A stretch of DNA of 64,000 nucleotides from Nemertoderma westbladi (lineage: Eukaryota > Animalia > Xenacoelomorpha). The notes below the pieces were generated by a model. That model was not told the DNA's origin and searched no databases. It saw nothing but the letters and a program-made list of their open reading frames with translations. Position numbers and translations under genes: made by a program. Location of the stretch: NCBI GenBank assembly GCA_032718475.1, contig JAUCBJ010008826.1:13667-77666 (forward strand), read 5' to 3'. This document shows, piece by piece, positions 2,189 to 55,130 of this stretch (position 1 is the first letter of the stretch; every line of letters starts with the position of its first letter).

Positions 2189-3680
2189 AGTAGTAGAGTC
2201 TTGGGCGGCTCGGCGACAGTTAGACCCCACTCATGACACATCGCTTAGGAATGTGACACCTATGGGTGTCATTGGCGCCAGAATGTCTGGGTGACACCTC
2301 CTAATTAGGCTAATAAAACCCAAATTTACAGGTGTCATCAATTAATTAATACACTTAATCCCTAATAGGTGTCTTACGACTCCTAATTAGGGTTTAATTG
2401 ATTATACTAATTAATCAGACCGAATAGCGCCCTAACACCCAATGGCTCATGAGTGTTGTCTAACTGTCACCTAGAGGCCCAAGAGGGTGTCATAAGTGAC
2501 ACCGCGGCTTTTTTATTTATTAATACTTATTTATTTGTATTTAATTTTAATTTATTTAATTGTATTTATTTTTACTTTATTTATTTAATTTTAAATTAAT
2601 TATTTATTTGTACTTTATTTTAAATTAATTAATTGTATTACTTTTACTTTATATATTGATTTCTATTTTAATATTAATTAGTTTTTATATTACTTACCGC
2701 TACTAAATGAGATCACTATGACATAATATCTATATTTAGCTCTGTGGTATACAGCTCCTTACTGGCAACTATTTTGGAGTTAATGTTAGCAAAGGGCCTA
2801 AACTTAAGACAAGCTATCGCCTAGGTTACCAGTTATGCATGAATGAGAAATTTATCAGGGCCCCTCTTAAAATTCTTTGTGCTGCGTCAGCAGCACAAGG
2901 AAGCTTAAGGAAGCTGCATCCCTATCGATAATCTAATTATGGTATCGCTAATCATTTTCAGTATACTGTATAATTAAATAGGGCCCTCAATTAATACATA
3001 AGTTTATATATACAGTTTATCTTCAATTTAATTTGTTTTTATTTACAACCCTAATTGTTCTACTGTATTATAATTTATGTTTTATAATAACAAGCTATAT
3101 CCGGTTAATCTGTATTAATTTTCTTTGTACTGAGTTTATCGAGTGCGCTGTTTCCAATGGTCCTATTCTCAAAACGATCTAACCTACTGTATAATTAATT
3201 ACTTAAGACTGCGATGTATGCGTAATTAACTAATCTCGTTTACCAGTTTTCCTTAAAAACTTTGAAGCCATATTGCTTAAGAGTTCTAAGGGGCGAGTCA
3301 TGAGGCAAGATGTTTGAGACTTATTTAGATATATTATTACTTAATTTTGACCCCCCAGTCGGTATCTATTACAATATGGGCTATAACTTTTGTAGAGTCA
3401 CAGAGTAGTCTGAAGTTCCCCAGTCTGCCGCTAGAGGGCGAAATGTCTCAAACTAAAAACCATATAGTAGCCATGAATTGGTTACTAGGCAATAATACTG
3501 CATTTTGCAAAGTTAGGCCTATTGCTGACCGAATGAAAACTGCCCTGGTTCATGCGGGGATCGAACCCATGACATACGGGAGATGCGAATTCAACGTAAC
3601 CACTACACCAAGGTGGAACCGTAACCTTCGAATTTGTTCGTTGCCGTTCGAATTTGTAAGACTCTCATTTAAGACCTGAT
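2189..3680 (+). repeat. Left TIR (outer part) of the Polinton-like element
   Basis: Reverse complement of ~22740-24168, apart from small indels. Confidence 0.9.
3541..3620 (-). ncRNA. tRNA-derived/Pol III-type sequence inside the TIR (also at ~22205-22290 and ~22804-22890 on +)
   Basis: Minus strand reads GGTTCCACCTTGGTGTAGTGGTTACG...GGGTTCGATCCCCGCATGAACC, with A-box-like TGGTGTAGTGG and B-box GGTTCGATCC. No canonical cloverleaf. Confidence 0.4.
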
Positions 3681-3931
3681 ACAGACTATGCCTCACTGTG
3701 GCATAGACTATGCCTCACTGAGGTACAGAATATGTCTCACTGAGGCTCTGAGGCATAGTCTATGCCTCACTGGGGCACTGAGCCACAGACTATGCCTCAC
3801 TGAGCCGCAGACTATGCCTCACTGAGGCATAGACTATGCCTCACTGAGGTACTGAGGCATAGACTATACCTCACTGAGGCATCGACGACTATGCCTCACT
3901 ATGGCATAGACTATGACTCACTGAGGCATAG
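3680..3931. repeat. Quasi-palindromic ~22-bp minisatellite (left arm), interrupted by the solo LTR and resuming at 5118-5152
   Basis: Tandem units of CTGAGGCATAGACTATGCCTCA with variants. Confidence 0.9.
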
Positions 3932-5117
3932 TGTTCGCGCTTTCAGACCTTTAGCAGTTTAACCTGCCAAATTTGGATGTCTTCTAGATTATAAATCGAC
4001 TTTAGCCTATGACGAGTATTTGTTACACTACATTAGCCGAAGCCAGTCTATGCGCGACCATTCACCCGCTGGATACACCCGGGAGACTGGATTCGGAAGC
4101 TTTGACCTTATTGCGGTGTAGGCCTACTGTATTATTCGACTGATCGTTAATATATAATTTCTGACAAATATTATTCACTTTCGGGAAATATTAACAGTTC
4201 CTTTAGGACGTGGCGCTCTAAATATGTAAACAGAGTTATGACTTATACTAGACACAACGGGATAGCTATGGATTCACGTATAAAGCGCATTCTTTAGGAG
4301 ATGCTTTGTTATCAGTCACAATCATGCACACTACCGCACAATGCTGCACACCGATCTGCCGACCTTCACTAATTTTAGTCACATATAAAGAGAACAACAA
4401 CCGACTCATGTAGTGCCTATGAAATAGCATTAGATTCACTCCAAAACCACTTTAATGTAAGTCGCAATTATTGTATGTAACCGGTCTCTCACCTTCAGTA
4501 TATCAAGAAGATTGGCGGTTTTATGATTATTCACCGATATTATCCAAATATAATAATATTCCATCAACTGATATAATTAATAACCGACAGTAAATAGCAG
4601 TAAAAATGCGGTGTTTGTAGTTGACAATATGATTTGACACACTGACTTGTGATTAGTTTGTGTTGCGATAACAGTTATACGTTTCTATGACCAAAGCCTA
4701 CTAATGTTTGGCTAAAGCCTGAAAACACAGAAATTCCAAAGCCGGTCTTATGGGTGTGGACAAAATACACATACTGACTCAATTGCATGAGTTTCTGTAT
4801 ACAATCTCCAACACAGAGTGAAAACCGCTCTGATTGGTCGACCGAACAAAGAACGAACAAAGAACAAAGAAAATGTTACATGTGTACATATCAGCTGTTA
4901 GATGTCGTCATGGTAACTACACTGTATCAAGAGGATTTTGGCTTATTGCGACATAAGATCGCTAGTTATGTCCGCTAAAGTACACATACAGAAGAAATGG
5001 CTTTTTATGTCCACTAAAACACCGGTACAGTAAGGAAACGGCTTTTTATGTCCGTTAAAACACCTACAGAGCACTTTGCGGGAAAAATAACTAGCTAGAT
5101 CCGCAAAAGCCTTTACA
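3932..5117 (-). mobile_element. Solo LTR of the BEL/Pao family (subtype closer to the 36244-55130 copy)
   Basis: TG...CA ends (TGTTCGCGC at 3932, CTTTACA at 5117). 5-bp TSD CATAG at 3927-3931 and 5118-5122. Colinear with 53938-55130. Confidence 0.93.
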
Positions 5118-6689: not shown

Positions 6690-7856
6690 TGTAAAAGCTT
6701 TTGCGGAATTAGCCGGTTATTTTCCCCGTAAAGTACTCTGTAGTTGGTTTAACAGGCATAAAAGGCCGTATCCTTACTGTACTGGTGTTTTAGTGGACAT
6801 AAAAAGCCATTTCTTCTGTATGTGTACTTTAGCGGACATAATTAGCAATTCTATGACGCAAGGCGCTAGATCCTCTTGAAACAGTGTAGTTACTATGACG
6901 ACAGCTAACAGCTGAGCTGTACACGTGTAGCTTTTTCCTTGTTCTCTGGTGTTTCTTTGTTCGGTCAACCAATCAGAGCGATTCTCCTGCTTTTTGTACA
7001 GAAACCTCCGGGAAATCGCGCAATGCATTATGGGTCAATGTTTACATTTTGTCCTGAGCCCAGAAGACCGGCTTTTGGAATCTCTGTGTTTTCAGTCTTT
7101 AGCCCAACATTAGTAGGCTTAATTATAGAACGTATATCTGTTATCTCACTCACCTAATCATATTGTCAACTACAAACACCGCATTTTTACTGCTATTTAC
7201 TGTCGGTTATTCATTATATCAGTTGATGGAATATTATTATATTTGGAATACCGATAAATAATTACAAAACCCTCAATCTTCTTGATATACTGAATGTAAG
7301 AGAGACCGGTTACATATAACGATTGCGACTTACATTAAAGTGGGTTTGAAGTGAATCTAATGCTATTTCATAGGCACTACATGTATTGGTTGTTGTTCTC
7401 TTTATATGTGACTAAAATTAGTGAAGGTCGGCAGATCGGTGTGCAGCATTGTGCAGTATTGTGTATGATTGTGACTGATAACAAAGCATCTCCTAAAGAA
7501 TGCGCCATATACGTGAATCTATAGCCATCCCGTTGTGTCTAGTTTAAGTCATAACTCTGTTTACATATTTAGAGCGCCACGTCCTAAAGGAACTGTTAAT
7601 ATTTCCCGAAAGTGAATAATATTTGTCAGAGATTATATATTACGATCAATTGAATAATACAGTAGGCCTACACCGCAATACGGTTAGGCTTCCGAATCCA
7701 GTCTCCCGGGTATATCCAGCGGGTGAATGGTCGTGCATAGACTGGCTTCGGCTAATGTAGTGTATCAAATACTCGTCATAGGCTAAAGACGATTCATTAT
7801 CTAGAAGACATCCCAATTTGGCAGGTTAAACTGCTAAAGGTCTAAAAGCGCGAACA
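6690..7856 (+). repeat. 5' LTR of copy A
   Basis: TGTAAAAGC...GCGAACA. Near-identical to 19672-20837, with roughly a dozen differences by eye. Confidence 0.95.
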
Positions 7857-7870
7857 ATAACAGATATACG
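7857..7870 (+). promoter_or_regulatory. Putative self-priming primer-binding site
   Basis: ATAACAGATATACG directly abuts the LTR end and is the exact reverse complement of CGTATATCTGTTAT at 7131-7144 inside the LTR. No TGG tRNA-type PBS. Confidence 0.7.
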
Positions 7871-8138
7871 CTTCTTTATTGCAACGTAGGCAATAAAGCT
7901 GAAGTACCGGCCAACCGGTACCCAATAGGCCTGACTACCTAACCACCCGGACCGGTACTTACAGCAGTACAGGTACAGCAGTATTATTTCGATTGTGATA
8001 TTGTATACCGGTAGGCTGTTTAAGAGATTAGGGACTGTACACCCCTTGTTTCTTTTGGAGCTTACTTATTTCTGTCAGGTTTTATTTATTTGTAGGTTAA
8101 TATTGAGCAGAAGACGTGTAAGCCTGCTCAGATTATAC

Positions 8139-8712
8139 AGATAATTTGTAGGCTGGACTGTTGTCTGACTGTTGTTAAGTCTGAAGGGACTGTAGTGTGT
8201 GTAGAGTGTATGTCCGATAAAGTGCCAGTTGGGAACGTAGGGGCTTCCAGTGCTGTGAGGTAAACCCCCTCGAAAGAATAAGTCGTACTACTCGGTTAGA
8301 ACGCATACTAACTAACCATTTTGGAGTCTGCATATACTGTAGTTTATTTAGGCTTGATAGTAGTCTGCCAGCGTTTGGTCTGTACTTTGTTTGTGTAGTC
8401 TGTACGGGTAGCGTAATATTTCTTATTTAGATAATTTGTAGGCTGGATTGTTGTCTGGCTGTTGTTAGGTCTGAAGAAATTTCGGTGTGTGTAGAGTGTA
8501 TGTCCGATAAAGTGCCAGTTGGGAACGTAGGGGCTTCCAGTGCTGTGAGGTAAACCCCCTCGAAAGAATAAGTCGTACTACTCGGTTAGAACGCATACTA
8601 ACTAACCATTTCGGAGTCTGCATATACCGTAGTTTGTTTAGGCTTGATAGTAGTCTGTCAGTATTTGGTCTGCATTTTGTTTGAGTAGTCTGTACGCGTA
8701 GCGTAATATTTA
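8139..8712 (+). repeat. ~290-bp tandem duplication in the 5' leader of copy A
   Basis: AGATAATTTGTAGGCTGGA...GCGTAATATTT occurs at ~8139 and ~8429. Copy B has a single unit. Confidence 0.85.
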
Positions 8713-10111
8713 TTATTCAGAGTTTATGCGATTATTCGCAACATTCATATCCCCAAGTTTATTCCTACAGTAATTGTGCTTGTTATATATACCGTTATAG
8801 TTAAACTAACCCCGGTACTACATCAGGGCTGCTTGGCGTAGGTAAAGACTGGTGATTTTGTGCCCCGGTCACTCCAGCAGATACCGTGGTTCTTTTAGCT
8901 GTACAAGTATTTCTAACTACTGATTATTTGTTGTATAAGTACTTGTACCTAATTTAGGGTTTAGTGTACAGTGCTTTCCGAGGGTAATTAGTGTGTAGGC
9001 AGTATAATTGTGTTGTAAAGTGGATAATAGGCACGTTGATTCTGGTAGACCGCGGTAATTAACTTCTAGGTAGGAACACTCCGTGATACATAACGTAGTA
9101 CTTATAGCGATACGGCTATAAGTCGTCAGACGGTGGTATTTTCCTATCTGGACAACGCAATATATTTACTACTGCTTGTTATTTTCAAATACCGTAGTAC
9201 CCTGTCCGTTGTAATAACCAGATATTCTAACCCTTTGTTAGGCTGGTTTGCAGACTTCTTGTAAAATTACCCTAAAAATTCATACGTGTAATTTTTGTGT
9301 TTATTTAGAGATTGTAATCTCACCCCGAATTGTATGTAATTTGTAGTATTAAGTAACTTAGGTAAATTAGAATTATTTGTTTTAGTGTCCAACAAGTAGC
9401 ACTTCACTGATAGCGCACAGCTTCTGTGTAGTGACTCCTTCCCAGAAATAATAACATTTATTTCAAATATTGACAAAACCCATTATACGGGTATATATAT
9501 ATTATAAATCAACTCAAACCGATTTATAAATAGTAGGCCTGCCATACAACAATTAGGTCTCAATATCAGTTGGACTACTGCTCAAATAACGGTAATAAAG
9601 TAAGTTAAAGTAACCAAGTAACCCCTAAAATTCAGAAATTCAATAATTCTAAAATAATTGATATACCGGTATTTATAATAGGCTTATTATATTTATTTCT
9701 ATAAATTTAGGCTGAAATTATACCGGTATTCTGTAATTAATTCTAGTCTGTAATTATACTTATATATATACATTATAAGTATAAGCTGTATACCGGTATT
9801 CACGATAGGCCTATTATATATATTTATATATTTGTGCTAAAATTATATACTGGTATTCTGTGACAAACCTAGTCTGTAATAATACTTATATATATACTAT
9901 AAGCATACCGGTATTCTAATATATTATATATATATATCACGCTACACTGAGTAGCAGTATCGGTAATTAATTACTAGGCTAACAGTTGATACTGAATTAC
10001 TAGACTTGCTTTAACTGTAATATAGCAGTAGGCATTCAACTGTACAAACAAACATGTCTGACACAAAGCAAAACCTGTCAGACAGCCTCCTAGATACAAC
10101 CATCTGTGACC

Positions 10112-11642
10112 AAGAGCGGACGTCCGAGAATGGCTTCAGTTTTGACCTTCTTGATAAATATTTCTTTCAAAATTGTGATATCAATCTAAACAACTTGAGA
10201 ATTCTAAGCATTTTGAGCTAAATAAATGAACTCTAAATATTCACTAGCACCAAATTGCCCACCCACCCTGTACAGCTGTAACAACGTTCTGGAACAAATA
10301 AATCATAATCTAAACATGTAGCCCCGGTGGTCTTCTAATCGTTCCTAAAAATAATTGGTAGATTCGAATTCGCATTGTACAATTAAACATTTCGGAAATA
10401 AACGTTTCGGATTATTTACTTAAATAGTTAAATTTATAAACTTTTTAATTATAAATAAATTAGTTATAAATAAAATCAAAATTTTATTCCACCGATGGGC
10501 TACGTGGATGATTATCTACAACTTTGAGTTTCATCATTTTCCCGTAGGACCTATAGTTTTCTTAAATAGCGAAATTTATTACCTTTTTAATTATAAATAT
10601 ATTAGTTATAAATAAAGTCAACATTTTATTCCCCCGATGGGCTACGCGGATGATTATCTACAACTTTGAATTTCATCATTTTCCCGTAGGACCTATAGTT
10701 TTCTTAAATAGCGAAATTTATTACCTTTTTAATTATAAATATATTAGTTATAAATAAAGTCAACATTTTATTCCCCCGATGGGCTATGCGGATGATTATC
10801 TACAACTTTGAATTTCATCATTTTCCCGTAGGACCTATAGTTTTCTTAAATAGCGAAATTTATTACCTTTTTAATTATAAATATATTAGTTATAAATAAA
10901 GTCAACATTTTATTCCCCCGATGGGCTACGCGGATGATTATCTACAACTTTGAATTTCATCACTTTCCCGTAGGACCTATAGTTTTCTTAAATAGCGAAA
11001 TTTATTACCTTTTTAATTATAATATTAGTAATAAATTGATCAATTTACTTGAAATTTGGTACACGTATTTCTGGTACCCCCCCTTCATATTGTGTGCAAA
11101 TTAAAAAAAAAATCGTATCTGCAGTTCCTGAGATCGACTGATTTTGGACTAGAGTGTACATATATACTGCTTTGCCACTACCATTATAATTCGCATCATT
11201 TACCCACTACTGATTAGCCCCATTCAATAGATTAACTGTAAACATTGTTCATATAGTGGATATGTGTATTGCTGGGCAGACTGGCTATAGTATAACATCC
11301 GTCATTAAACAACCCCAGTAGTCAGACACTGTGGTTATCATTAAATCAAATTGTCTATAAATAGTACACATTAGATGGCGGCCATATTACTACTGAGATA
11401 ACGGCATACTAGCAGCTCTACCTACCTACTGTGGTTGCCAAGCCAACTCTGAATTAATTCTACCAGCGAACTGCCTTGGTGCTCTTCCCAATCAGATATC
11501 GGCAAGATTTATTTCTAATAGTTTTAATTAATTTTTAATAACTTTAAAACATTCTCACTCGGCCCCTAATTTATGAATTTGGGACGGCGCTTTATCTTGG
11601 TAGCTACTGCGCCGGTTTTCTTGCAGGGAAAGGGCCCTCTCC
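10112..11642. mobile_element. 1.5-kb unclassified insertion in copy A gag
   Basis: Absent from copy B, where GTGACCCAGAC is contiguous. Flanked by ACC at 10109-10111 and 11643-11645. No convincing TIR. Confidence 0.8.
10440..11030. repeat. 142-bp tandem repeat, ~4 copies
   Basis: CCGATGGGC recurs at 10492, 10634, 10776 and 10918. Confidence 0.92.
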
Positions 11643-14600
11643 ACCCAGACAGGAGTGTGGAACGTGTGAGACCGAAGTTCAACTCACCTCCTACTGTAAG
11701 AAAGATCATCCCTCCAGTAGTAATATCAGACCCTAGGCTAGTCCAACATCGTAGGTCTATCATAGGCACTCGAGCTCAGGTCAAGCGAGACCAAGAAGCA
11801 GCGGAACAGCAGCAACACTCGAGCCGAGAACTTATTTCGCAGCGGCCCGACAGCTCCAGTAGTGAGGATACTGTAGAGCTGACACCCGAGCACGGAGCAA
11901 AGATGACAGATGCGGTTTATTCGGATCCCCTTCTCATCCTTCCTGCAGCCGTACTCACTAGGGTATTGATTGCGGTGGAGGAACACCAGATTGATTGGGC
12001 GAGAAGTAAGCGATCGACTAAGGATAGTTATGCGGGATACACAAGGGAAGAACTGAAGTCTATTGTCGAGTCGCAATGGAACTTCCCCGGACCCAGACTC
12101 CCGCTTGACTTATCGGAAGCTGCCTGGGAAGACATACACAGGATGGGAGTAACCAAGGAAACCATCGATCCAGCTGTGTGGAAGAGGTCCGCAGCAGGAT
12201 ACGTACAGGGATTCTTCAGCTCCATGGAGCGATTAGAGGAACAATTGTTTAGACAACCACAAGGACCTCAAGAGCAGGGAGAGCTGCTTTATCAAGTTCG
12301 AGAAAGAATTCTAAGAATCAGACTAATCCTATCGGCCTTTGAGGAGGCTTCGAAAAGAAAACAAGGCACGTCGTTGCAAGTTGCCGTAAAGACTTGGTTT
12401 CAGCGAGTGAGTCTCAAAGTTCAAGGAACTGCCCAGTGGAAATCTCAGCTGGCTGAGCGCTCAACTCATGGAGAATCAACAGACGCTACCTTTTCCCAAG
12501 TGGAAAGCGAAGCGACAGCAGAGAAACCGCATAAGAGGGATGCTATTGACATCTATCTGTCAGACTATCAACGCTTTGTAGGTGATGAAGAGTTGAGGAG
12601 AAGGCTGGAGGGACTTAGCCCTAATAGTGAAGGAGCCAAGCTTGTGTTGGACGCAATCGATGCGGATATGAGAGCTGCGAACCAAGCTAAATTTGATGAA
12701 CGCCTCCACATCACTAGAGTCCAAGAAGAACAAGTAAAGAAAAAACGTATAGAAGTCAGAAAGACAGCGGCAGTGGCAGCAGCAGTGGCAGCGGCAGAAG
12801 CGGAAAGAAAAGCGACAGCGGCAGCGGCAGAGGTAGAAGCGGAAAGAAAGGCGGTAGAAATGGAAAGAAAAGCGGCGGCGGCGGCAGCGGCAGCGGCAGA
12901 GGCAGAAGCGGAAAGAAAGGCGGTAGAAGTGGAAAGAAAAGCGGCAGTGGCAGCGGCCGAAGCGGAAAGAAAGGCGGCAGTGGCAGCGGCAGAGGCAGTG
13001 GCAGAAGCAGAAAGGAGAGCGTCTGAAGAAACCACCCAACTAGAATTGGAAAACATTCAGGAGAATCAAGACTGCATAAATAAACAGTTAACAGCTAGTC
13101 AAATGCAGATGATGGGTGGATCAACTCCCAAAAGACAGGGATATACATCATCTGAGGAAGGCGATACCACCGATCTTGAAGGCTGAGGAAATAGATCTCG
13201 TCTAAGCAGACGTAGAAGAATGTCCCACCGTCAGAAATTGCCTGATTTGCACCCAGCTGTTAGAAGGCAACTAACTAACACAAATTTAGGTAGTACAGAA
13301 CCCACAGACCAAATAATTAACATAGAAAGACATAGTAGATGAGCCCGAAATAATTAGGCCTGTTCTCGAAGCCACCCCTTCGGTGATAGAGACACCTGTA
13401 CTCCCTGAACCTATCTCTAAATTCCCCCTGCACAGCATTAAGCTACCTGTGCCCAGCAGAACAGCCCATGAGACAGTTCATGTCCTGGACTCCGAGCGAA
13501 ATATTAATGATTTGTCGCCCATTGTCCCTCGTCCGCCCGCTACAACGTTGGCGACTCCCGCTTCGGCGGTCGAGTGGGTGGATGAGAGACGGCGGGGGAT
13601 GGATCTCCTGCTCGGGCAGATGCAGGAGACTGTTAAGCAGTTCAAGGGCACAGTAAGGGAAAGTAGGTTAGAGTTGCAAGAAGTGCAGCAAAGTATCGCG
13701 TTAGAACGCGATAAATTAGTAAATACACAAAAGGGTATACCACCACCCCCTGTAACAATGTGTCAACCTGTTAGGTCTGAAGTATTTCATGCGCAAGGTG
13801 TGGAGCCTACATGCATCTATACTGCTAGCGAAGTGGAAACTCCTATAGTAAACCCTATTAAGGGTAATTATAAACCTGTTGACAATGATATTCCATATAG
13901 ACTTGATAATAATCCGAGAAATTTATATACCGATAACTCGATATTAAATAACACGATGGCCCAAGAAAGTTTTACGCGTCAAATGGCTAGAACCGAAGCC
14001 CGTCAAGCGGTAAAGATGGGAGAGATCGTCAAGTTCAATGGAGATGAGATGAAATGGTTACCTTTTAATGAATATTACAAAGATAACATACAGAACTCTG
14101 TGCTATCTAACGGAGAGAAACTTAGATTCCTCATCGAGTGCTTGGAAGGATCTCCCAAGTTAATGGCGTTAAAGTTTATTGGACATCCCGATGGATTAAG
14201 ACAAGTTTGGGATACCCTAAACATCAGGTATGGTAATAGGAATAACATAGCTAGGTATTTATATGCAAAATTGGTAGCGCCCCGAAAGTTCATTAGCAGC
14301 GGGATAATAGAGTTTTCCGATGAGATTCAAGAGATCTGTAGACAATTAGATTGGCTAGGTAAGTCTCATGAATATCAGAGTTCTATGGTTATTGGAGCTG
14401 TGGCTTCTACCTTACCGAAGGGTGGAGTAGGTACACGCTGGGATAAGAAAGTGTTATATATGATGGAACAGCAACGACGAGACCCTACCATGGCTGATCT
14501 CATGTCATTCTTAGATGGAGAAGTGAAATTACAGCTCCTAAAGCAGTCCAGAGAGAAGACACCGGAAAACAAGGTAAGTGAGAAACCCGTTTCTAGGAGA

Positions 14601-15329
14601 AAGGTAACCCCAGTGTGTTATACCGACGACGGCGAAAGCCAGGCTTCTCAAGGAGAGGACAGCGGGAAAGACACTGAAAGATCTTATTATGTCAATAAAA
14701 CGCCTAAAGAACAGGTAAGTAAATTCAAGTCTCGAACCAAAGACAGGAGAGAACAGGTAAGAAAAACTCCTCCTACTTCTCCTAAGAGAATTCAGGTAAG
14801 AAAGCCCGAAGAAAGAACGAGTGTGCACAATGTTATTCAAAATAAGGTAAGTAACATCAAACCGAAATGTGTGCTATGTGACGGGACCCATCGTTTGAAT
14901 ATGTGTGATGAATTCCTAAAGAAATCATTAACGGAGAGACGGGAAGTCATGTGGGATAAGCGGTTGTGTTATAATTGCCTCAGACAAGGACACCAACGGC
15001 GAACCTGTTACTCCGACACAAGGTGTGCAAAGTGCGGTGCGAAACATCATATCTTGTTGCACACTGAATTCGAACGAAACAGCCCGAGTCAGGTAAGTGA
15101 TTCCGAACTACATGTCCAATTCAGTGATGTGAACGACACTGACCAAAGTTCTGAGATGGAAGGATTCTATACGGATGAATTCTCCGACGAAGATGAATCC
15201 TGTTACATGATAAATACCGCAGTGTATCGAGCACTTACGTATGAAAAAGACACAGACAGCGAGCTCACCCTAACTACTTCTGATCGACAACCATCTTGGA
15301 AAGCACTAACTTCCAATGTAGGAATCTGA

Positions 15330-16607
15330 GAATTTCCTGTAGTACAGTTAAGGGTCCACGGACCTAAGAGGAGTTATATAGTGAACGCCCTCCTTGACTC
15401 CGGTAGCACAGGAACATTCATCGACAAAGAACTAGCCGAAGACATCTTTGCTGGACAACACAAGTTCCGAACTAAGCTAAACATGTCAGGAATTATGCAG
15501 GTTTGGAAATCTACAGTAATAGCGGATTATTATGTAGGTGCGTTGTCCACCCCCCAGGATGAACTAGGAGAACACAGCATAAGGTCAGTAAAAATGGTGG
15601 CGATAAAGAACTTCGCTACCAGCCAAGTAGAACCTTATAACTGGGATGAGGACGATTTCACCCAGCAGTTTGATATACCTAGATTCAACACCGATTACCC
15701 TGGAGTGCAAATACTCATCGGTCAAAATGCGCACGAGGCGCTCGAGACATTGGAGAAACGGCCTGCTCAACCGCAACCACTACAAGCTTATGCGGGAAGA
15801 ACTAGAGTGGGTTGGTACTTTACTGGCCCTTCCCGTAGAACTCTCATGGAAAGATTACCGAAAGATCAGGTATATCAAGTAAGAGAATGGGAAGCGGAGA
15901 GCAGTGAGGTAGACGACCCAACTGAGGGAACACCATACTCCTCAGATAATGACGATATTAACTCCAATGTAGATCAATGGAGACATTGCCCCAAGACGAT
16001 TAATCTGGCCGACATCGCTTCCAGAGGAGCAACTCCTCAAGAACTGACAGATACTCCAGACAGGTTAGGTGGACCCGATTTCCTAAGTAGAGAAGATGAA
16101 TGGCCTCCTCATCTTACCACGGCTGAGATTAGACAAGCCAAGGGAGCGGAGAAAGTCAAACCTAAAACCCGGACGAGTAAATCAAGGTTATTTAAACCCG
16201 TGATAGATCTGTCTGTACTACACATTGCCAGGGACGACGCTGTGGATCTAAACTCCCCCACCACGAACCGATCTGTTGTGGAGATCAGAGAGAGAGACTG
16301 GAGATCTGGAACACCAGACGTCTCGCCGGGACTCTCACCTCTCCTGCCGGGAGCGATGGACCACTATAGATCCTGGAATCGGCTTTGTAAGGCCGTCGTG
16401 TATTTGAAGCGATGTTTCTATCGTCACTATTCCAGGACGAAGAGGAAACCTGGAATTGTCTTCGAGATACAGCAGCTCAATCGCCCAGTTGGTCGTTTAT
16501 GTTTACTGGAAAGAGACCGAGAACTGTCCGGAAACTATGGAAGGCAAGATACTCTTCCCACGACCACCTCCCTAATCCAACAAACATCTAGGGACTCCCC
16601 AACGTAA
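15330..16607 (+). pseudogene. pol: Truncated Pol of copy A: aspartic protease fused in frame to an RNase H-distal segment and the Pol C-terminus; RT and IN deleted
   Basis: ALLDSGS protease motif. DQWRHCPKTINLADIASRG motif. Comparison with copy B shows jumps at ~15960 and ~16440. Confidence 0.88.
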
Positions 16608-18065
16608 CATCGTCTGGAGTGGGTGTGTGACTATATTATTTTATATTCTTATTATTTTATATTTATGTATGTATTATTATGTAATTTTATTATAATCATT
16701 TTCTTTAATTTTATTTAGTAGAATGTTATTTTAGCGATTATTTAGTAGATTAGTGCAATATATATTAGTGTTTATTACTTAATTACTTATATATTATATA
16801 TTTACAGCGACGGCGAGAAATAATTCTTTTTCTCTTTCCTTACTGTCCGTGTTACATTACAAATACGTAACTACAGTAAGATGAAATATCCGTACTTATT
16901 AAAGTACAATAAAGCCACTACTATATTCAAGTATTATTGGTAGGCAGAGTATTAGGAATGCAAAGTTCAGATCCTCGTGTCTCGGCTAAACCAAGCTCTG
17001 GGTAGACCTTGGAAACGACTTGCCTCTTCACACTGACATTGCTTCGTGCGATATTGCTCTTCTACTTTATATTAAATAATACATATAGTAGCGTGATGTC
17101 CCTCTAACAGTAGCGTGAAACGCAAATAAATCTGTTAAACCTTTTGACCATCTGTAATTCTAGTCGATTAAGATATCGCGGCACCCACCGATATACTTGA
17201 AAGACAAATTCTAGAATCAGTGGTTAACGTCCCCAGACAAGTTCTGGAATAAACTGGTGCCCATCCTAAATATTAATTATTAATATTTACAAAATCTGTC
17301 AAATTTTAGATCCTTTAAAATTCTAGTCTATTAAGATATCGTAGCACTTACCGATATTCTTAAAAAGACCAATTTCCTAGAATCAAGGATCCTAGTCCCC
17401 AGACATGTTCTGGAATAAAATTGTGTCTATTTAATATTAAATAATAAAATTTACGGGAATAAATTTAAATTCATATTTTAATGAATTTGATAAATTGTCA
17501 TTTTTATGCAATTTATAACATTCCCAAAATTCCATAAATTAATAGATCATGGGAGCGGAGATTCACCCTATTAAGTATATTAGTGTGCGAGAATCTCCAA
17601 TATGTAGTCAATAGCCGATAAAATTCATAAAATCATGTATAGAGAGGATATTGACCATTAAAGAATTACTATTAAATAGCATCCCAGATCTGTATGCATG
17701 AGAATTACCCTAATTCTACCGCTAGCTTTCCATAATGTCACCATGGCAACAACCACGCTAGAATTAGAAGTGAGTCCAAAGAACAATAAAGCTTGCCCAT
17801 TGAATAGCATAAGGAATAAAATAGCACACTACTAGTATCCCAGGATACCCAATAATAACGTGGCATTCTGGAAGGCACTGACTAATGGACAAATGGCCCG
17901 AATGTGTGCGATTTGTGACAGTTGTGTGGATTTTGTGCGTTTATAGGTGAATGTTACTACTAAAGTGTGTTTACAGTAGCGAGTCGCAATTGTGAAAGTA
18001 GCCCTAACTCTCCAGTAAGAACCTGAAGTAAATCTAAGCCTTTGGGACGGACGGTGGAGTGACTC

Positions 18066-18136
18066 GCGCTGGTTGTTGTAGTCGTTGTGCAGCTACGACG
18101 TTGGCGATAGGCACATCGGCGAAAGTACACCAGCGC
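18066..18136 (+). ncRNA. Conserved 71-nt RNA hairpin upstream of the accessory ORF (copy A)
   Basis: Outer stem GCGCTGGT/ACCAGCGC plus a 17-position inner stem. Compensatory changes relative to 41829-41899. Confidence 0.6.
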
Positions 18137-18236
18137 TGAGGATCTTGCGCTGTCCGGGGGCTGAGAGGGGTAGGCAGCGACGCTCGCTAGCCTAAATATA
18201 AACTCATTATAATATTGATAAACTCATATAGCAGAT

Positions 18237-19593
18237 ATGACTGAGTTGATAGAAGATGATCTTGGTATCAGGGAGCGATATACTCTACCTTTACAAACGT
18301 TTGTTGATAGCTTGATATGCGGCGACGCTGGTCCAACTACTACAGAGGACGATGGTCGTTATATCGAACCGCCAATGTCCCAGGAGCAACTTACGCGTGA
18401 ATTGGACTATAGAAACTTCACCGCTCGCTATACGCATCGTAATGGTATGCATATGGACTTCTTAACTACTGGTCATCCTATCGATTTACACGATATGGAC
18501 GATGTCGACACCGAAAGGGAAATGGTACTGTTTGAGTATCCTACCCAGCGGAGTCGGAATGATAAACTGAAAATCGAATGCGAAAATTCTATTCGAAATC
18601 GACTCGAAAGAGAAGACATTAAAGAACCGGATAAACGCGGTAACTCCAACGTATATTTGGAATTCTTGAGAGAAACATTGTAAAACCGAATAAATATCAC
18701 CCGCGTTTCCCCTACAAGATGTGCGTCTTTGGTATTATTGCAATGAATGCCCAAGACCCAACCAACAAACGGAAAGACATAAACATCCGTAGAGACGTTG
18801 CTTTAAACACGGTTACTCGCTATATTTACGGGAGTTTCGAGCGAAACTTGTTCGATGTATCACCTACGCTCGCTCGATTCAAACAATCCTTAAATAAACC
18901 TATGATCAGAGTTCCGGAATACTCGGTCAGACCTCCTCATTCCCTAGTTAGACCTCAGACTCTTGATCCTAATAGTATCATGGATCCTCCCGAACTGTAC
19001 TCACTGTTCAAAGATCTAGTGCTACCCGAACAGTTAGTCGGTGGCACTCCGGTTGTGGGCTCCCTAAATATTCGCCCATCTTACCTAGTCGGATTGGGAC
19101 GCGGACATCTAATATCGTCATTCAACCGTATCATCGTCCCTGTTTAACCCGATACAACCTGTCACCGAAGCGGAGGAAAGAGTTGTACGAAACGCGTTGG
19201 ACACTATTCGTCAAAAGATCGGAAAATGAACCTACAATTGTTTAGAGAAACGTAAATTGCAGCAGCAAGTCCAAGCAGTAAACGAATTAATTTTATCTCA
19301 GTTCGATCAGGAAATTCAGAATCTCTAAGAAGATATCGAACTTGGACGACCCTATTCTCTGCAAGAGTTTTGGACAAACGCATCCAACGATAAGCAGAGG
19401 AAAATCAGCTCGAGGAGAAGCATATCGAAATGGACGAGACATCGACCGTAACCCTAAACCTTCAGATGCAATTGTATTGCACCCTTTACCCAGGAGTTAT
19501 AGCCCTCCTAGTAAAGTGGCTCGCCCCAAAGAGAAAAGGACTCTTGCTAGCCTCAAAAAACTGCGTAAACGCCGTCCGCGTAAGAAAGACTAA
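18237..19593 (+). pseudogene. Deleted and frameshifted remnant of accessory ORF3 in copy A
   Basis: The start MTELIEDDLGIRERY... and the end ...KKLRKRRPRKKD both match copy B. There is a small deletion near 18680 and a ~2.7-kb deletion near 19440 that removes the exonuclease and knuckles. Confidence 0.88.
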
Positions 19594-19662
19594 CTGTTTA
19601 GAGTATTTTTATATTTTAGAAACTGTGATTTTTTATATTTTATAGACTTAAATCCCATTTTC

Positions 19663-19671
19663 TGGGAGCGG
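19663..19671 (+). promoter_or_regulatory. Short polypurine tract before the 3' LTR
   Basis: TGGGAGCGG immediately precedes the TGT of the 3' LTR. Same sequence in copy B at 37397-37405 on the minus strand. Confidence 0.65.
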
Positions 19672-20837
19672 TGTAAAAGCTTTTGCGGAATTAGCCAGTT
19701 ATTTTCCCCGTAAAGTACTCTGTAGTTGGTTTAACAGGCAAAAAAGGCCGTATCCTTACTGTACTGGTGTTTTAGTGGACATAAAAAGCCATTTATTCTG
19801 TATGTGTACTTTAGCGGACATAATTAGCAATTCTATGACGCAATGCGCTAGATCCTCTTGAAACAGTGTAGTTACTATGACGACAGCTAACAGCTGAGCT
19901 GTACACGTGTAGCTTTTTCCTTGTTCTCTGGTGTTTCTTTGTTCGGTCAACCAATCAGAGCGATTCTCCTGCTTTTTGTACAGAAACCTCCGGGAAATCG
20001 CGCAATGCATTATGGGTCAATGTTTACATTTTGTCCTGAGCCCAGAAGACCGGCTTTTGGAATCTCTGTGTTTTCAGTCTTTAGCCCAACATTAGTAGGC
20101 TTAATTATAGAACGTATATCTGTTATCTCACTCACCTAATCATATTGTCAACTACAAACACCGCATTTTTACTGCTATTTACTGTCGGTTATTCATTATA
20201 TCAGTGATGGAATATTATTATATTTGGAATACCGATAAATAATTACAAAACCCTCAATCTTCTTGATATACTGAAGGTAAGAGAGACCGGTTACATATAA
20301 CGATTGCGACTTACATTAAAGTGGTTTTGAAGTGAATCTAATGCTATTTCATAGGCACTACATGTATTGGTTGTTGTTCTCTTTATATGTGACTAAAATT
20401 AGTGAAGGTCGGCAGATCGGTGTGCAGCATTGTGCAGTATTGTGTGTGATTGTGACTGATAACAAAGCATCTCCTAAAGAATGCGCCATATACGTGAATC
20501 TATAGCCATCCCGTTGTGTCTAGTTTAAGTCATAACTCTGTTTACATATTTAGAGCGCCACGTCCTAAAGGAACTGTTAATATTTCCTGAAAGTGAATAA
20601 TATTTGTCAGAGATTATATATTACGATCAATCGAATAATACAGTAGGCCTACACCGCAATACGGTTAGGCTTCCGAATCCAGTCTCCCGGGTATATCCAG
20701 CGGGTGAATGGTCGCGCATAGACTGGCTTTGGCTAATGTAGTGTATGAAATACTCGTCATAGGCTAAAGACGATTCATTATCTAGGAGACATCCCAATTT
20801 GGCAGGTTAAACTGCTAAAGGTCTAAAAGCGCGAACA
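19672..20837 (+). repeat. 3' LTR of copy A
   Basis: Direct repeat of 6690-7856. Confidence 0.95.
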
Positions 20838-20949: not shown

Positions 20950-21639
20950 TGTCTGTTTTACCTTATCTTTAATATATCAGGCTGCATCTCTCTTTTTCTT
21001 TTCATCTTCACTAAAAATATCTTCGGATTTTTTAAATTTTTTTGATAACGGATCCATTAGTTTTCCCTTCTATGTGTTTCCATATCACGAGATAGATTGC
21101 CTTGTCTCATTTCTTTATTACAAACCATACAACTTTCATGTCTATGCATTATATAGCAATGTCAATTGATAGTATTGAATTTTAGCTAAATGATTTTACA
21201 AAATTTTAAATAAATAAAGCTTTTGTGAAAATAAATAAATCTTTTTAAAATAAAAATTAGAGAATGAATGGGAATGCGGTGATGTCCGTATTATAGAGGG
21301 AGGCTAGAAAGGAATATCCAATCAGAGTGCGAGGGTGAGTTAGGCAGCCAATCAGGACTCGAGGGAGGAAAGTTAGGCAGCCAATGAGAGAGCAGATGCG
21401 AGTACAGTGGTAAAGCTCATCCATGGTGAGATAACGTCACACTAACTCTCAAGGATAGTTATACTCACCATTCAAATATCCCTCGCAAACCAGATTCCCC
21501 CAGCATCTAAAGTATTCCACTTCAAAGCAAAATATATAGAGCTTTAGTTGGATTTGAACCTGTGCTTGTAAACTCTTTTGTGCTCGTATATTGAAATTTA
21601 TTGTTCATATAATGCAATATAACTCGGCTATTTAGTCTG

Positions 21640-22740
21640 TGCTTCAGTGAGGCATAGTCTATGCCTCAGTGCCTCAGTGAGGCCTAGTCTATGCCTCAGT
21701 GCCTCAGTGAGGCATAGTCTATGCCTCAGTGAGGCATAGTCTGTGCCTCAGTGAGGCATAGTCTATGCCTCAGTGAGGCTTAGTCTCTGCCTCAGTGAGG
21801 CATAGTCTTTGCCTCAGTGAGGCATAGTCTGTGCCTCAGTGAGGCATAGTCTGTGCCTCAGTGAGGCATAGTCTATCCCTCAATGAGGCATGGACTATGC
21901 CACAGTGAGTCATAGTCTATGCCTCAGTGAGTCATAGTCTATGCCTCAGTGACTCAGTGAGGCATAGTCTATGCCTCAGTGCCTCAGTGAGGCATAGTCT
22001 ATGCCTCAGTGCCTCAGTGAGGCATAGTCTGTGCCTCAGTGCCTCAGTGAGGCATAGTCTGTGCCTCAGTGAGGCATAGTCTGTGCCTCAGTGCCTCAGT
22101 GAGGCATAGTCTGTGCCTCAGTGCCTCAGTGAGGCATAGTCTGTATCAGGTCTGAAATGAGAGTCTTACAAATTCGAATGGCAACGAACAAATTCGAAGG
22201 TTACTGTTCCACCTTGGTGTAGTGGTTGCGTTGAATTCACATCTCTCTCCCGTATGTCATGGGTTCGATCCCTGCATGAACCAGGGCAGTTTTCGTTCTC
22301 AGTGTCTCGTTCAGTGCCTCAGTGAGGCATAGTCTATGCCTCAGTGAGGCATAGTCTGTGCCTCAGTGAGGCATAGTCTATGCCTCAGTGAGGCTTAGTC
22401 TCTGCCTCAGTGAGGCATAGTCTTTGCCTCAGTGAGGCATAGTCTGTGCCTCAGTGAGGCATAGTCTGTGCCTCAGTGAGGCATAGTCTATCCCTCAATG
22501 AGGCATGGACTATGCCTCAGTGAGTCATAGTCTATGCCTCAGTGAGTCATAGTCTATGCCTCAGTGACTCAGTGAGGCATAGTCTATGCCTCAGTGCCTC
22601 AGTGAGGCATAGTCTATGCCTCAGTGAGGCATAGTCTGTGCCTCAGTGCCTCAGTGAGGCATAGTCTGTGCCTCAGTGAGGCATAGTCTGTGCCTCAGTG
22701 AGGCATAGTCTGTGCCTCAGTGCCTCAGTGAGGCATAGTC
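21640..22740. repeat. Expanded quasi-palindromic minisatellite in the right TIR, within a ~600-bp tandem duplication
   Basis: Units TGAGGCATAGTCTATGCCTCAG with optional TGCCTCAG 8-mers. The unique segment CTGTATCAGGTCTGAAATGAGAG occurs at 22141 and 22740. Confidence 0.9.
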
Positions 22741-24168
22741 TGTATCAGGTCTGAAATGAGAGTCTTACAAATTCGAATGGCAACGAACAAATTCGAAGGT
22801 TACTGTTCCACCTTGGTGTAGTGGTTGCGTTGAATTCACATCTCTCTCCCGTATGTCATGGGTTCGATCCCTGCATGAACCAGGGCAGTTTTCGTTCGGT
22901 CAGCAATAGGCCTAACTTTGCAAAATGCACTATTATTGCCTAGTAACCAATTCATGGCTACTATATGGTTTTCACTTTGAGACATTTCGCCCTCTAGCAG
23001 CAGACTGGGGAACTGGGGATAATATATCTAAATAAGTCTCAAACCTCTTGCCTCATGGCTCGCCCCTTAGAACTCTTACGCAATATGGCTTAAAGTTTTT
23101 AAGGAACACTGGTAAACGAGATTTGTTAATTACGTATACCTCGCAGTCTTAAGTAATTAATTATACAGTAGGTTAGATCGTTTTGAGAATAGGACCATTG
23201 GAAACAGCACCCTCGATAACCTCAGTACAAAGAAAATTAATACAGATTAACCGGATATAGCTTGTTATTATAAAACATAAATTATAATACAGAACAATTA
23301 GGGTTGTAAATAAAAACAAATTAAATTGAAGATAAACTGTATATATAAACTTATGTATTAATTGAGGGCCCTATTTAATTATACAGTATACTGAAAATGA
23401 TTAGCGATACCAAAATTAGATTATCGATAGGGATGTGGCTTCCTTAAATGAGGCAATGCTGACGCAGCACAAAGAATTTTAAGAGGGGCCCTGATAAATT
23501 GCTTTTCATGCGTAACTGGTAACCTAGGCGATAGCTTGTGTTAAGTTTAGGCCCTTTGCTAACATTAACTCCAAAATAGTTGCCAGTAAGGGAGCTGTAT
23601 ACCATAGAACTATATAGATATTGTGTCATGGTGATCTCATTTAGTAGCGGTAAGTAATATAAAAACTAATTAATATTAAAATAGAAATCAATATATAAAG
23701 TAAAAGTAATACATTTAATTAATTTACAATAAAGTACAAATAAATAATTAATTTAAAATTAAATAAATAAAGTAAAAATAAATACAATTAAATAAATTAA
23801 AATTAAATACAAATAAATAAGTATTAATAAATAAAAGAGCTGCGGTGTCACTTATGACACCCTCTTGAGCCTCTAGGTGACAGTTAGACAACACTCATGA
23901 CCCATTGGGTGTTAGGGCGCTATTCGGTCTGATTAATTAGGATATTCAATTAAACCCTAATTAGGAGTCGTAAGACACCTATTAGGGATTAAATGTATTA
24001 ATTAATTGATGACACCTGTCAAGTAGGGTCTTATTAGCCTAATTAGGAGGTGTCATCCAGACAGTCTGGTGCCAATGACACCCAATGATACCCATAGGTG
24101 TCACATTCCTAAGCGATGAGTCATGAGTGGGGACTAACTGTCGCCGAGCCGCCCAAGACCCTACTACT
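22740..24168 (-). repeat. Right TIR (outer part) of the Polinton-like element
   Basis: Reverse complement of 2189-3680. Confidence 0.9.
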
Positions 24169-43366: not shown

Positions 43367-46300
43367 TTATGTTGGGGAGTCCCTAGATGTTTGTTGGATT
43401 AGGGAGGTGGTCATGGGAAGAGTATCTTGCCTTCCATAGTTTCCGGAGAGTTCTCTGTCTCTTTCCAGTAAACATAAACGACCAACTGGGCGATTGAGCT
43501 GCTGTGTCTCGAAGACAATTCCCGGTTTCTTAAAGTTACGTCGCATGACGACGAGTTCTACCGATCGCACTAAACCATCATCCGAGATGTGAGTCTCGAT
43601 GATACGACCTGTCTGCCACCGCTTACGTGGAAGATCTGAATCCACAATAAGGACCATGTCTCCAGCGCTGACGTTTTCTTGCTGCTCAAACCACTTAGTT
43701 CGAAGTTGTAGATAATGTGTGTAATTTGCAGATAATGTTTTTCGAAATGGTCAGCGAAACGACGGGATAACAACTGCATAAGTTGCCAAGTTTGCCGGCA
43801 GTATTCGTCTCCGTCTGTGATTTCCGATCGTGGGAGCATGGCTACAGGTTTCTTCAGTAGGAAGTGCGCGGGTGTTAGCGCTTCCAGGGAATCGGGACTC
43901 GATGAGACTGGCATAAGCGGTCTCTCGTTGAGATAGGCGGCGATTTCCTCCATTAACGTCCGCAAAAGTTCGTCGGTGAGATACGCGCGGCACGGCACTA
44001 TGAAGTGAAATGCGGTCTTCACGCTCCTGATTAATCTCTCCCAACTTCCTCCCCACCAAGGGGCGTCGGCGGCGTTGAAGGTTCAGCTAGACGCTGTTAC
44101 CCTTAGCTGATCGTCCACCTGTCTTTGGTTCCAATCTTTGACGTAAGCCTTGATTTCATTGTTGGCACCAATGAAGTTCGTTCCCTTATCAGATCTCATC
44201 GTGTTACTAGTTCCAAAGCGAGCGATCTGTTGTCGTAAGCTCAATAGGAAGCTGTTGGTAGATAAATCGTTCACCATATCGAGATGGATAGCTCTACAAG
44301 TCATACAAACAAAGATGACACACCATCTCTTGACTATAGTCCTAGCACGATATACTTCAATAGGGCCAAATAAATCTACACCGGTATTAGTAAAAGGTGG
44401 TTCATAGAAGCTTACTCGTTCCCTAGGTAATTCTGCCTCTCGCTGTGTTAAAGGCCTACTGAATGCTTTCCTACAGGGTATGCAGTTCCTAAGAACTTGG
44501 TTCAGAGCTCTACGGGGTTTATAAAAATAATAGCGAGTTCGAATTTCGCTAAGAACTCGTTCTCTACCAGCATGATAAAGATTGCTGTGAACATCTACAA
44601 TCATCTTGATTTGTATTTCCAGATTTCTAATGAGTATGGGAAACTTAGTATCAAAGGATAATGGAGCATTAATTAATCTTCCTCCAACACGTATCAACCC
44701 ATCTATCATTGTGCTAGAGAAACGATCCCTTAAGCGCATCTGTGGATTTCTCAACAACAGGAAGTACTTATCGGAATCCTCATAGCATTGCAGGAGTCTC
44801 AGCATCTGCTTATTGGTTTCTTCATGCTCCTGATAACTGATCTTCTCCTTCAGAAACCTGTCGGATATCTTATATTTGGGAAGATCTTTAACAACATGAA
44901 CCTGCACAGATGTCAGTGGAGCGGTATCACTAGTGGTCTTCGTCCTGGAGTAGTGATGATGAAAACATCGCTTTAAATATGTAATGGCTTTACAGAGCCG
45001 ATTCCAGGAACTATAATGATGTATCGCTCTCTGCAGAAGAGGTGAGAGTCCTTGCGAGACGTCTGGTATTCCAGATTTCCAATCCCTCTCTCTGATTTCC
45101 ACAACAGACTTATTTGTAGCTGTGGGTTTTGGATCCAAAGCGTCGTCTCCGGAAGTGTGTAGTACAGACAGATCTACCACGGGTTTAAATAACTTCGATT
45201 TACTCGCCCGAGTTTTAGGTTTGACTTTCCCCGCTCCCTTGGCCTGTCTAATCTCCGCCGTAGTAAGATGAGGAGGCCATTCATCCACTTCTTTGCTTAG
45301 GAAGTCGGGTCCACCTAACCAGTATGGAGTATCTATCAGTTCTTGTGGAGTTGCTCCCCTGGATGCGATGTCTGCTGGATTAATCGTTCCGGGGCAATGT
45401 CTCCATTGATCCATCTTCGTGCGACTAAGTATAATGGCTACTCTGTTGGTAACGAAGACGCTGAACTGACAGACTTCATTGGTTATATACTCCAACACGA
45501 GTAAAGCATCGGTCCAATAGACAGTTTTCTCCAGTGGATATTCGATCTGTTCTGTTACATTCCGGCCGATGGCTGTAGCGTATAGAGCCGCTTTTAACTC
45601 CGCTCGAGGAACTTTCAACTTGTTGTTTATCAATGCCTTAGAGGTAACCAAGGCGACTTTGATTCCATCTGGAGTTTCCACTCTCAGGTAGGCTACTATA
45701 CCTATTCACATGTCGCTGGCGTCTCCAAACACATGGAGTTGATAGGAATACGTAGGGAGAACATGACCAAAATATGAACGGGAAATTATAAAGTTCTCGA
45801 TGGCTGGTAGAGAATCTTCCCATTTCATCCACTTCTTTAATAGTTCTCCCTTAAGTGGATCGTCCCATGAGTGGTTTTCAAGCCACATTTGTTGTACTAA
45901 ACTCCGAGCAATCAATATAACTGGGCTAATAAATCCCAATGGATCGAAATAAGTGCTCAGGATACTTAAACAAATCCGTTTAGTCCGAACTGGATTATCT
46001 CGCTGTTTGAGCTGGAAAAACAGGATATCTCTCTCTGTGTCCCATTTCAAACCAAGTGTTTTGGTTTCTGGAAGATCGTCTTTGATTAGGTCTAGATCTT
46101 TCGCTCCTCGATCTTCTACCGGAATCGATTCCAGAAACTCACGGGAGTTGCTGGTGAATTTAGTTAATCGAAATCCACCTCTTTTTAAGCACTCTACCGT
46201 TCCTTTGGCGACATCAATGGCTTCTTCCACCGATGGAAGGGACTTTAAATTGTCGTCCATGTATATATCCCGTTTGATGTTGTCGATCACCTCTTTAGAG

Positions 46301-53937: not shown

Positions 53938-55130
53938 TGCTCGCGCTTTTAGACCTTTAGCAGTTTAACCTGCCAAATTTAGGTGTCTTTTAGGTTATAA
54001 ATCGACTTTAGCCTATGACGAGTATTTGATACACTACATTAGCCGAAGCCAGTCTATGCGCGACCATTCACCCGCTGGATATACCCGGGAGACTGGATTC
54101 GGAAGCTCTGACCTTATTGCGGTGTAGGCCTACTGTATTATTCGACTGATCGTTAATATATAATCTCTGACAAATATTATTCACTTTCGGGAAATATCAA
54201 CAGTTCCTTTGGGACGTGGCGCTCTAAGTATGTAAACAGAGTTATGACTTACACTAAACACAACGGGATGGCTAATGATTCACGTATAAAGCGCATTCTT
54301 TAGGAGATGCTTTGTTATCTGTCACAGTCATGCACACTACCGCACAATGCTGCACACCGATCTGCCGACCTTCACTAATTTTAGTCATATAAAGAGAACA
54401 GCAACTGACACATGTAGTGCCTATGAAATAGAATTAGATTCATTCCAAAACCAATGTAATGTAAGTCGCAATTGCTATATGTAACCGGTCTCTTACCTTC
54501 AGTATATCAAGAAGATTGGGGTTTTATGATTATTTATCGATATTATCCAAATATAATAATATTCCATCAACTGATACAATTAATAACCGACAGTAAATAG
54601 CAGTAAATAATGCGGTGTTTGTAGGTGACAATATGATTTGAGCATGTACTGGTTTGATATGGTTTGATTTGCAGTGTGATAGGATAACAGTTATACGTTT
54701 CTATGATCAAAGCCTACTAATGTTTGGCTAAAGCCTGAAACACAGAATAATTCCAAAGCCGGTCTTCTGGCATCAGGAAAAAAGGTAAACATAAACCGTA
54801 ATGCATTGTGCGATTTCCCGGAGGTTTCTGTACAAAGAACATGAGAATCGCTCTGATTGGTTGACCGAACAAAGAAACAAAGGAAAAGTTACACGTGTAC
54901 ATATCAGCTGATAGATGTCGTCATAGTAACTACACTGTATCAACAGGATTTTGGCTTATTGCGACATAAAATCGCTAGTTATGTCCGCTAAAGTACACAT
55001 ACAGAAGAAATGGCTTTTTATGTCCACTAAAACACCGGTACAGTAAGGAAACGGTTATTTATGTCCGTTAAAACACCTACAGAGTACTTTGCGGGGAAAA
55101 TAACCAGCTAATTCCGCAAAAGCCTTTACA
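53938..55130 (-). repeat. 5' LTR of copy B
   Basis: TG...CA ends. Direct repeat of 36244-37396. Confidence 0.95.

Follow-up and report, generated by a model that had tools for sequence, protein, structure and literature searches.

How does a BEL/Pao retrotransposon begin minus-strand DNA synthesis when the sequence adjoining its 5' LTR is an exact complement of a segment of that same LTR? BEL/Pao elements form the least studied superfamily of LTR retrotransposons, and their priming by tRNA has been assumed by analogy. The ICTV description of the Belpaoviridae gives an 18-nt primer-binding site (PBS) for tRNA-Arg or tRNA-Gly and a genome of 4.2-10 kb, and it describes belpaovirid replication as poorly understood (PMC8742986). 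For the family described here, sequence comparisons make it probable that minus-strand DNA is primed with a 12-nt stretch of the element's own RNA.

A BEL/Pao family in three insertions

The window, meaning the whole 64-kb stretch of DNA that was analyzed, contains one LTR family with three insertions, which are element A, element B, and a solo LTR. Their parts are listed below in window coordinates.

6690-20837, plus strand: element A, a non-autonomous BEL/Pao copy of 14,148 nt with TSD CATCG
6690-7856, plus strand: 5' LTR of A, TG...CA, 1167 nt
19664-19671, plus strand: short purine-rich tract at the PPT position, preceding the 3' LTR of A and the same in B
19672-20837, plus strand: 3' LTR of A, with the primer motif at 20115-20126
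55130-36244, minus strand: element B, a BEL/Pao copy of 18,887 nt with TSD AAAGC
55130-53938 and 37396-36244, minus strand: LTRs of B, placed by the LTR pair and the TSD
5117-3932, minus strand: solo LTR of a third subtype, with TSD CTATG and the motif at 4668-4681

Because each insertion has TG...CA ends and its own 5-bp TSD, the LTR edges are set independently of the self-complementarity described below. Judged by the few mismatches within each LTR pair (13 of 1166 positions in A; in B, 8 among 1151 aligned positions, besides one gap of 41 nt), both A and B are recent insertions. Gag, protease, RT, RNase H, and integrase are all present in B, but stops and frameshifts interrupt them. Element A lacks the segments of B at 45412-47184 and 43530-44936, which correspond to RT, RNase H, and integrase, and could presumably have moved only with the enzymes of another copy, unless this loss postdates its insertion.

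The sequence-only reading had assigned these elements to BEL/Pao, and the DUF1759 gag, Peptidase_A17, and integrase domains bear this out. Pfam matches among the 18 ORFs scanned were to DUF1759, Peptidase_A17, and Integrase_H2C2, in a gypsy-like domain order. The closest proteins are BEL/Pao polyproteins (26-44% identity), and tblastn across the pol region of B agrees. These are BEL/Pao domains, and no chromodomain match was found among the 18 ORFs, unlike the chromodomain-bearing Ty3/gypsy chromovirus Pol that defines the Tf1/sushi group. Since the family assignment rests on Pol, a PBS that is not of the tRNA type leaves BEL/Pao membership intact.

Other features accompany these insertions. 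Element B carries a coding region of ~1300 codons 3' of pol (41743-37817, minus strand) that contains two stops, is partly present in A near 17100-19430, and has two CCHC-like knuckles close to its end. This ORF has no Pfam match and its first 851 aa have no homologue of similar length; on sequence grounds, the region is not recognizably env. The leader of A (7857-11570, plus strand) is ~3.7 kb long with tandem repeats of 290 nt and 142 nt; after it, and before the DUF1759 region, comes a 538-aa frame containing Ala/Glu-rich repeats. Perfect MAG/GTAAG donor-consensus sites occur in gag, with six in A within 520 nt (14574-15093, plus strand) and four in B (48947-48431, minus strand); the antisense strands of the two elements contain no such site. 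These clusters may reflect the production of spliced subgenomic RNAs. Elsewhere in the window, an 849-nt inverted repeat of 99% identity (56824-57670 and 60569-61415) surrounds a 2.9-kb stretch and probably marks either a foldback element or a DNA transposon of recent origin. Also, inverted copies with 96% identity (2263-3263 and 23092-24084) lie on either side of the region with the solo LTR and element A, where they adjoin 22-nt tandem arrays at 3682-3901 and 21608-22725.

The PBS, its complement in the LTR, and their surroundings

The sites on which the priming question turns are the following.

7131-7144 (core 7133-7144), plus strand: candidate self-primer of A, LTR nucleotides 442-455, exact complement of 7857-7870
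7857-7870 (core 7857-7868), plus strand: PBS of A, with no spacer from the LTR and no TGG
54695-54684, minus strand: candidate self-primer in the 5' LTR of B, where A replaces T at the covarying site
53937-53926, minus strand: PBS of B, 12 nt, with the matching change at position 8

Inspection of the letters alone had suggested that the 14 nt after the 5' LTR of A are the reverse complement of an LTR segment, that the PBS of B is complementary to its own LTR, that the TGG of a tRNA-type PBS is missing, and that the solo LTR retains the motif. All of these proposals withstood recalculation. Both matches are exact, the first TGG occurs 200 nt (A) or 295 nt (B) into the leader, and the solo LTR carries a motif of the B type. 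In both elements, the best LTR-complementary site is the first base after the LTR, among 11,775 positions in A and 16,501 in B. When the LTR was shuffled with dinucleotides preserved and offsets of 0-4 were permitted, the observed length was reached in 0 of 5000 shuffles for A (14 nt) and 4 of 5000 for B (12 nt).

The proposed A/T covariation at position 8 is real, and it is limited to a single site in two subfamilies. Crossed primer-PBS pairs between A and B match over only 7 nt, versus 14 nt (A) and 12 nt (B) within an element. By simple arithmetic, the chance of a matched change is ~1 in 36, given one change per side. As one event between two subfamilies, the covariation is suggestive, and the weight of the self-priming case rests on position, exactness, and relatives instead. 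The leaders of A and B are identical up to PBS position 12, except for the covarying position, and diverge from position 13. Because their agreement stops there, the functional PBS is probably the 12-nt core that the two copies have in common.

The 18-nt PBS expected of a BEL/Pao element, which would complement the 3' end of a tRNA, is absent from both A and B. Instead, each has a PBS that adjoins the LTR and is complementary to an LTR segment of about the 11 nt seen in the Tf1 type. An Rfam search of 6690-8100 gave no tRNA match and one chance match, and no tRNA genes were found in the 64-kb window.

Signals that might locate the start of transcription were sought in the LTR.

6969-6973, plus strand: CCAAT box in 5/5 LTRs, 164 nt upstream of the primer core
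7084-7095, plus strand: splice-acceptor-like site in 5/5 LTRs, 37 nt upstream of the primer core
7293-7300, plus strand: splice-donor-like site (7296), GTRAG in 5/5 LTRs, downstream of the primer
7634-7640, plus strand: the sole TATAWAW match in the LTR, in 5/5 copies, 500 nt downstream of the primer

No TATAWAW lies upstream of the primer in the LTR motif scan, no AATAAA is present in any of the five LTRs, and no promoter element in the scan points to the start at 7131-7133 that the sequence-only reading had predicted for a primer at the RNA 5' end. Between A and B, 55 of 430 positions differ upstream of the motif versus 55 of 707 downstream (Fisher p 0.007), and each of the three subtype pairs shows greater variability upstream (Fisher p ≤ 0.007). 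This pattern fits a U3 edge near the motif, without locating that edge. The strong-stop DNA implied by self-priming would be 712 nt long in A and 746 nt in B, ~3 times the longest value among eight relatives (65-251 nt), and this length is the main oddity of the self-priming reading.

Two other roles for these sites were considered and rejected. A primer assembled across a splice junction does not suit the window element, since the contiguous match is the best one and no GTRAG donor lies upstream of the acceptor-like site. Use of the motif mainly as a TATA box was dismissed because it departs from TATAWAW at position 6 and would leave the PBS change unexplained. One contig run (share 0.07) returned family-like contigs with 80-99% identity; they reveal no transcript starts or ends, and none covers the motif or the PBS among the matches listed (40 of 239).

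RNA folding predictions add the following features.

7666-7685, plus strand: U5 arm, predicted partner of the leader segment that immediately follows the PBS; strong in B, weak in A
7728-7744, plus strand: U5 arm, predicted partner of the last ~19 nt of the LTR, the same choice in 5/5 LTRs
7817-7838, plus strand: predicted 8-bp U5 hairpin, identical in 5/5 LTRs
7874-7898, plus strand: predicted leader hairpin, with a 9-bp stem common to A and B and loops that differ
53924-53904, minus strand: leader arm of B, with 54110-54129 as its predicted partner (-28.1 kcal/mol)

For RNAs begun at 7097-7133, the primer-PBS duplex of A is predicted with a probability of ~0.8-1.0 per pair, and that of B with 0.65-1.0 at matching starts. 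If the RNA is instead taken to begin at 7040 or 6690, A no longer forms the duplex and the probability for B drops to ~0.4. When the PBS of B is held unpaired, none of 300 shuffles yields a U5-leader helix as strong as its own, which ranks at the top of 505 leader windows. The LTR end of B (53955-53941) is predicted to pair with 54051-54063, and 3 of 300 shuffles match this result. Element A chooses the same partners, with shuffles reaching the two helices in 22 and 32 of 300 cases, and its leader favors the local hairpin at 7874-7898, which is predicted to compete with the U5-leader helix. Thus, B is predicted to form both flanking helices of the Tf1 'pretzel', and A to form them weakly. Among the eight self-complementary relatives described next, none has flanking helices that fewer than 5% of shuffles reach.

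Related families and rival explanations

Relatives were sought in metagenome contigs, where 80 loci were found; these fall into 57 clusters at 80% nucleotide identity, and all are distant from the window element. Scoring was confined to the 10 families whose 5' LTR end is fixed by a repeat pair, a rule under which the remaining 47 clusters were unscorable. Pfam was applied to eight of the scored families, and all eight carry Peptidase_A17 and DUF5641. With PBS pairing allowed across predicted GTRAG...YAG junctions inside the LTR, a first pass detected a 10-13 nt self-complement in 6 of 10 families. The final count of 8 of 10, at offsets of 0-4, was reached after the LTR ends of L002 and L021 were corrected by eye for BLAST overshoot and the offset was widened to 4; many of the loci might come from related hosts, and three of the eight (L007, L023, and L054) form one small clade. 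The PBS letters differ between families, and for each of the eight, 0 of 200 internal control sites match.

The self-complement is contiguous in L065, L002, and L021, and pairs only across a predicted LTR splice junction in L007, L023, L054, L037, and L060. In L007, L023, and L054, pairing is retained although the exon-1 letters differ. No self-complement is present in the other two scored families, L012 and L058, whose sites are of the TGG type. Seven more look-alike families, with ends that are not independently fixed, emerged from an open scan of another 35 loci: four contiguous cases (L040, L010, L057, and L053) and three spliced ones (L074, L076, and L038). In L002, L010, L023, and L038, the primer is preceded by a TATA match at a distance of 49-135 nt, which would place the primer an estimated 19-105 nt inside the RNA, assuming a start 30 nt after the TATA.

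A quick tree of 58 rows was made from one member of each cluster with a usable integrase match plus the window element, and holds no named BEL/Pao references. In it, the window element sits unplaced on a long branch, with identity no higher than 45%. The candidate junction-primed L038:557 groups with the TGG-type L012 and L077 (support 94), hinting at switches between priming modes. In L036:1-15296, head-to-tail copies of 100% identity share single LTRs with a period of 6138 nt, and represent either a tandem array or the assembly of a circle. A 26-nt LTR pattern had 0 matches in the metagenome contigs, and no relatives were found in viral contigs. Overall, the self-priming advanced in the sequence-only reading gains from the flanking helices predicted for B and from 8 of 10 related families. 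The trait is not peculiar to this element, being spread over its relatives.

These observations bear on three other accounts of the complementarity. The duplex might be structural, acting in packaging, in translation, or as a switch that hides the PBS, with priming left to a host RNA, for example an internal piece of a tRNA or some other small RNA that contains these 12 letters. In favor of this account, the motif resembles an Asn anticodon loop in its 3' half, and two alternative pairings are predicted for the leader arm. Half-tRNA priming is also reported in Copia lineages (PMC6317226). However, a host primer fails to explain why the LTR copy changes together with the PBS, or why the differing PBS letters of eight families are each matched by their own LTR, in five of them across a predicted splice junction, and we regard this account as improbable.

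We give somewhat less credence to a transcription start near 7664 under the TATA at 7634, which would leave the motif in U3 and require a primer supplied in trans, either by another RNA molecule through its 3' LTR or by a distinct transcript of an LTR. Its appeal is that this TATA is unique within the LTR and kept in every copy, and that R-U5 would measure ~190 nt, inside the range of the relatives. Yet a cut in U3 would presumably destroy that RNA as a template, conservation rises from the motif onward and not from 7664 onward, and the donor-like site at 7296 together with the CCAAT box at 6969 weakly suggests transcription from further upstream. It is very improbable that the match is due to chance or is a functionless relic of an old inversion or template switch. 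Although the match is short and AT-rich, is known from two full copies only, and is equaled by a few shuffles in B, such an origin is at odds with its exact position at the LTR edge, the empty shuffle result in A, the matched change, and the recurrence in relatives.

The proposed route and known systems

If the family is self-primed, transcription would start at or upstream of 7133, and the 12-nt segment would fold back onto a PBS that flanking U5 helices keep open. Cleavage of the RNA would follow immediately 3' of this segment, after 7144, and if Tf1 is a guide, the cutting enzyme would be the RNase H of the element. The new 3' OH would be positioned on the first base after the LTR, and its extension by RT would yield a strong-stop DNA of ~710 nt. 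During plus-strand synthesis, copying of the primer while still attached would restore the primer sequence in the PBS, which would explain how one changed letter comes to be present on both sides.

Two forms of this route can be distinguished. A primer that lies inside the RNA, as the relatives suggest, is quite possible, and the strict Tf1 form, with the primer at the RNA 5' end, is rather unlikely. The internal form is weighted slightly higher because the TATA matches of relatives place the primer inside the RNA and because a primer made at a splice junction must be internal. A broader proposal, also tentative, is that much of BEL/Pao diversity could normally rely on self-priming, with the primer cut from inside a capped RNA; the primer would then be contiguous in the window family, and in many relatives host splicing would assemble it.

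No self-primed BEL/Pao element was found in searches of the openly accessible literature. The main texts of three BEL/Pao surveys (PMC3118150, PMC554778, PMC6238403) make no mention of 'PBS' or 'tRNA', and BEL/Pao LTRs were not modelled in PMC3601003. The most likely interpretation of the sequences is a self-priming feature in a superfamily described as tRNA-primed, with precedents in two other superfamilies. If this is true, tRNA-free priming spans three superfamilies, and tools that require a tRNA PBS miss or misannotate such elements. Furthermore, silencing by 3' tRNA fragments would presumably not reach them. The reading predicts that strong-stop DNA carries a 12-nt RNA derived from the element and that the element's RNA is cut after 7144. 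Should self-priming be widespread, the textbook statement that BEL/Pao elements are tRNA-primed would be valid for only some lineages.

With the Belpaoviridae, the family shares the order of DUF1759 gag, protease, RT, Peptidase_A17 region, and integrase, a 5-bp TSD, and an LTR within 0.2-1.2 kb. It differs in that A and B lack a PBS for tRNA-Arg or tRNA-Gly, measure 14-19 kb, and carry a long extra coding region 3' of pol.

Published accounts describe self-priming in Tcn1 and the Tf1/sushi group, and TAR copia elements of plants are predicted to use it as well (PMC6317226, PMC4600332, PMC6934838). In Tf1, the first 11 bases are reported to pair with the PBS, and RNase H to cut between bases 11 and 12 (PMC7175516); about half of the cDNA is described as having a copied PBS at its 3' end (PMC11042837). 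The Tf1 'pretzel' is depicted as a central primer duplex plus two duplexes that join PBS-adjacent sequence with the LTR downstream of the primer (PMC10085805). In Tf1 and Tf2 of S. pombe, Tj1, Tosmo, Tcn1, and the Tf1/sushi elements, as in the window family, the PBS adjoins the LTR and complements an 11-12 nt LTR segment. Neither the Tf1 group nor the window family has a tRNA site, and the flanking helices predicted for B resemble the three-duplex arrangement as published (PMC10085805). The first five PBS letters are also the same as those given for Tf1 (PMC11042837), probably by coincidence. Unlike the Tf1 group, the window family belongs to the BEL/Pao superfamily, would form a loop of ~710 nt, and may have its primer inside the RNA instead of at the 5' end; the predicted 'pretzel' is weak in A and was not found in the BEL/Pao relatives. 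The window family most likely works like Tf1, yet lies outside Tf1/sushi. The TAR lineage of plant Ty1/copia (Houba, Osr-1) is a parallel in that its self-priming is likewise reported as a prediction from sequence outside Tf1/sushi (PMC6317226), although these are Copia elements of plants. Since TAR is a second origin already proposed, a BEL/Pao case would add a third superfamily.
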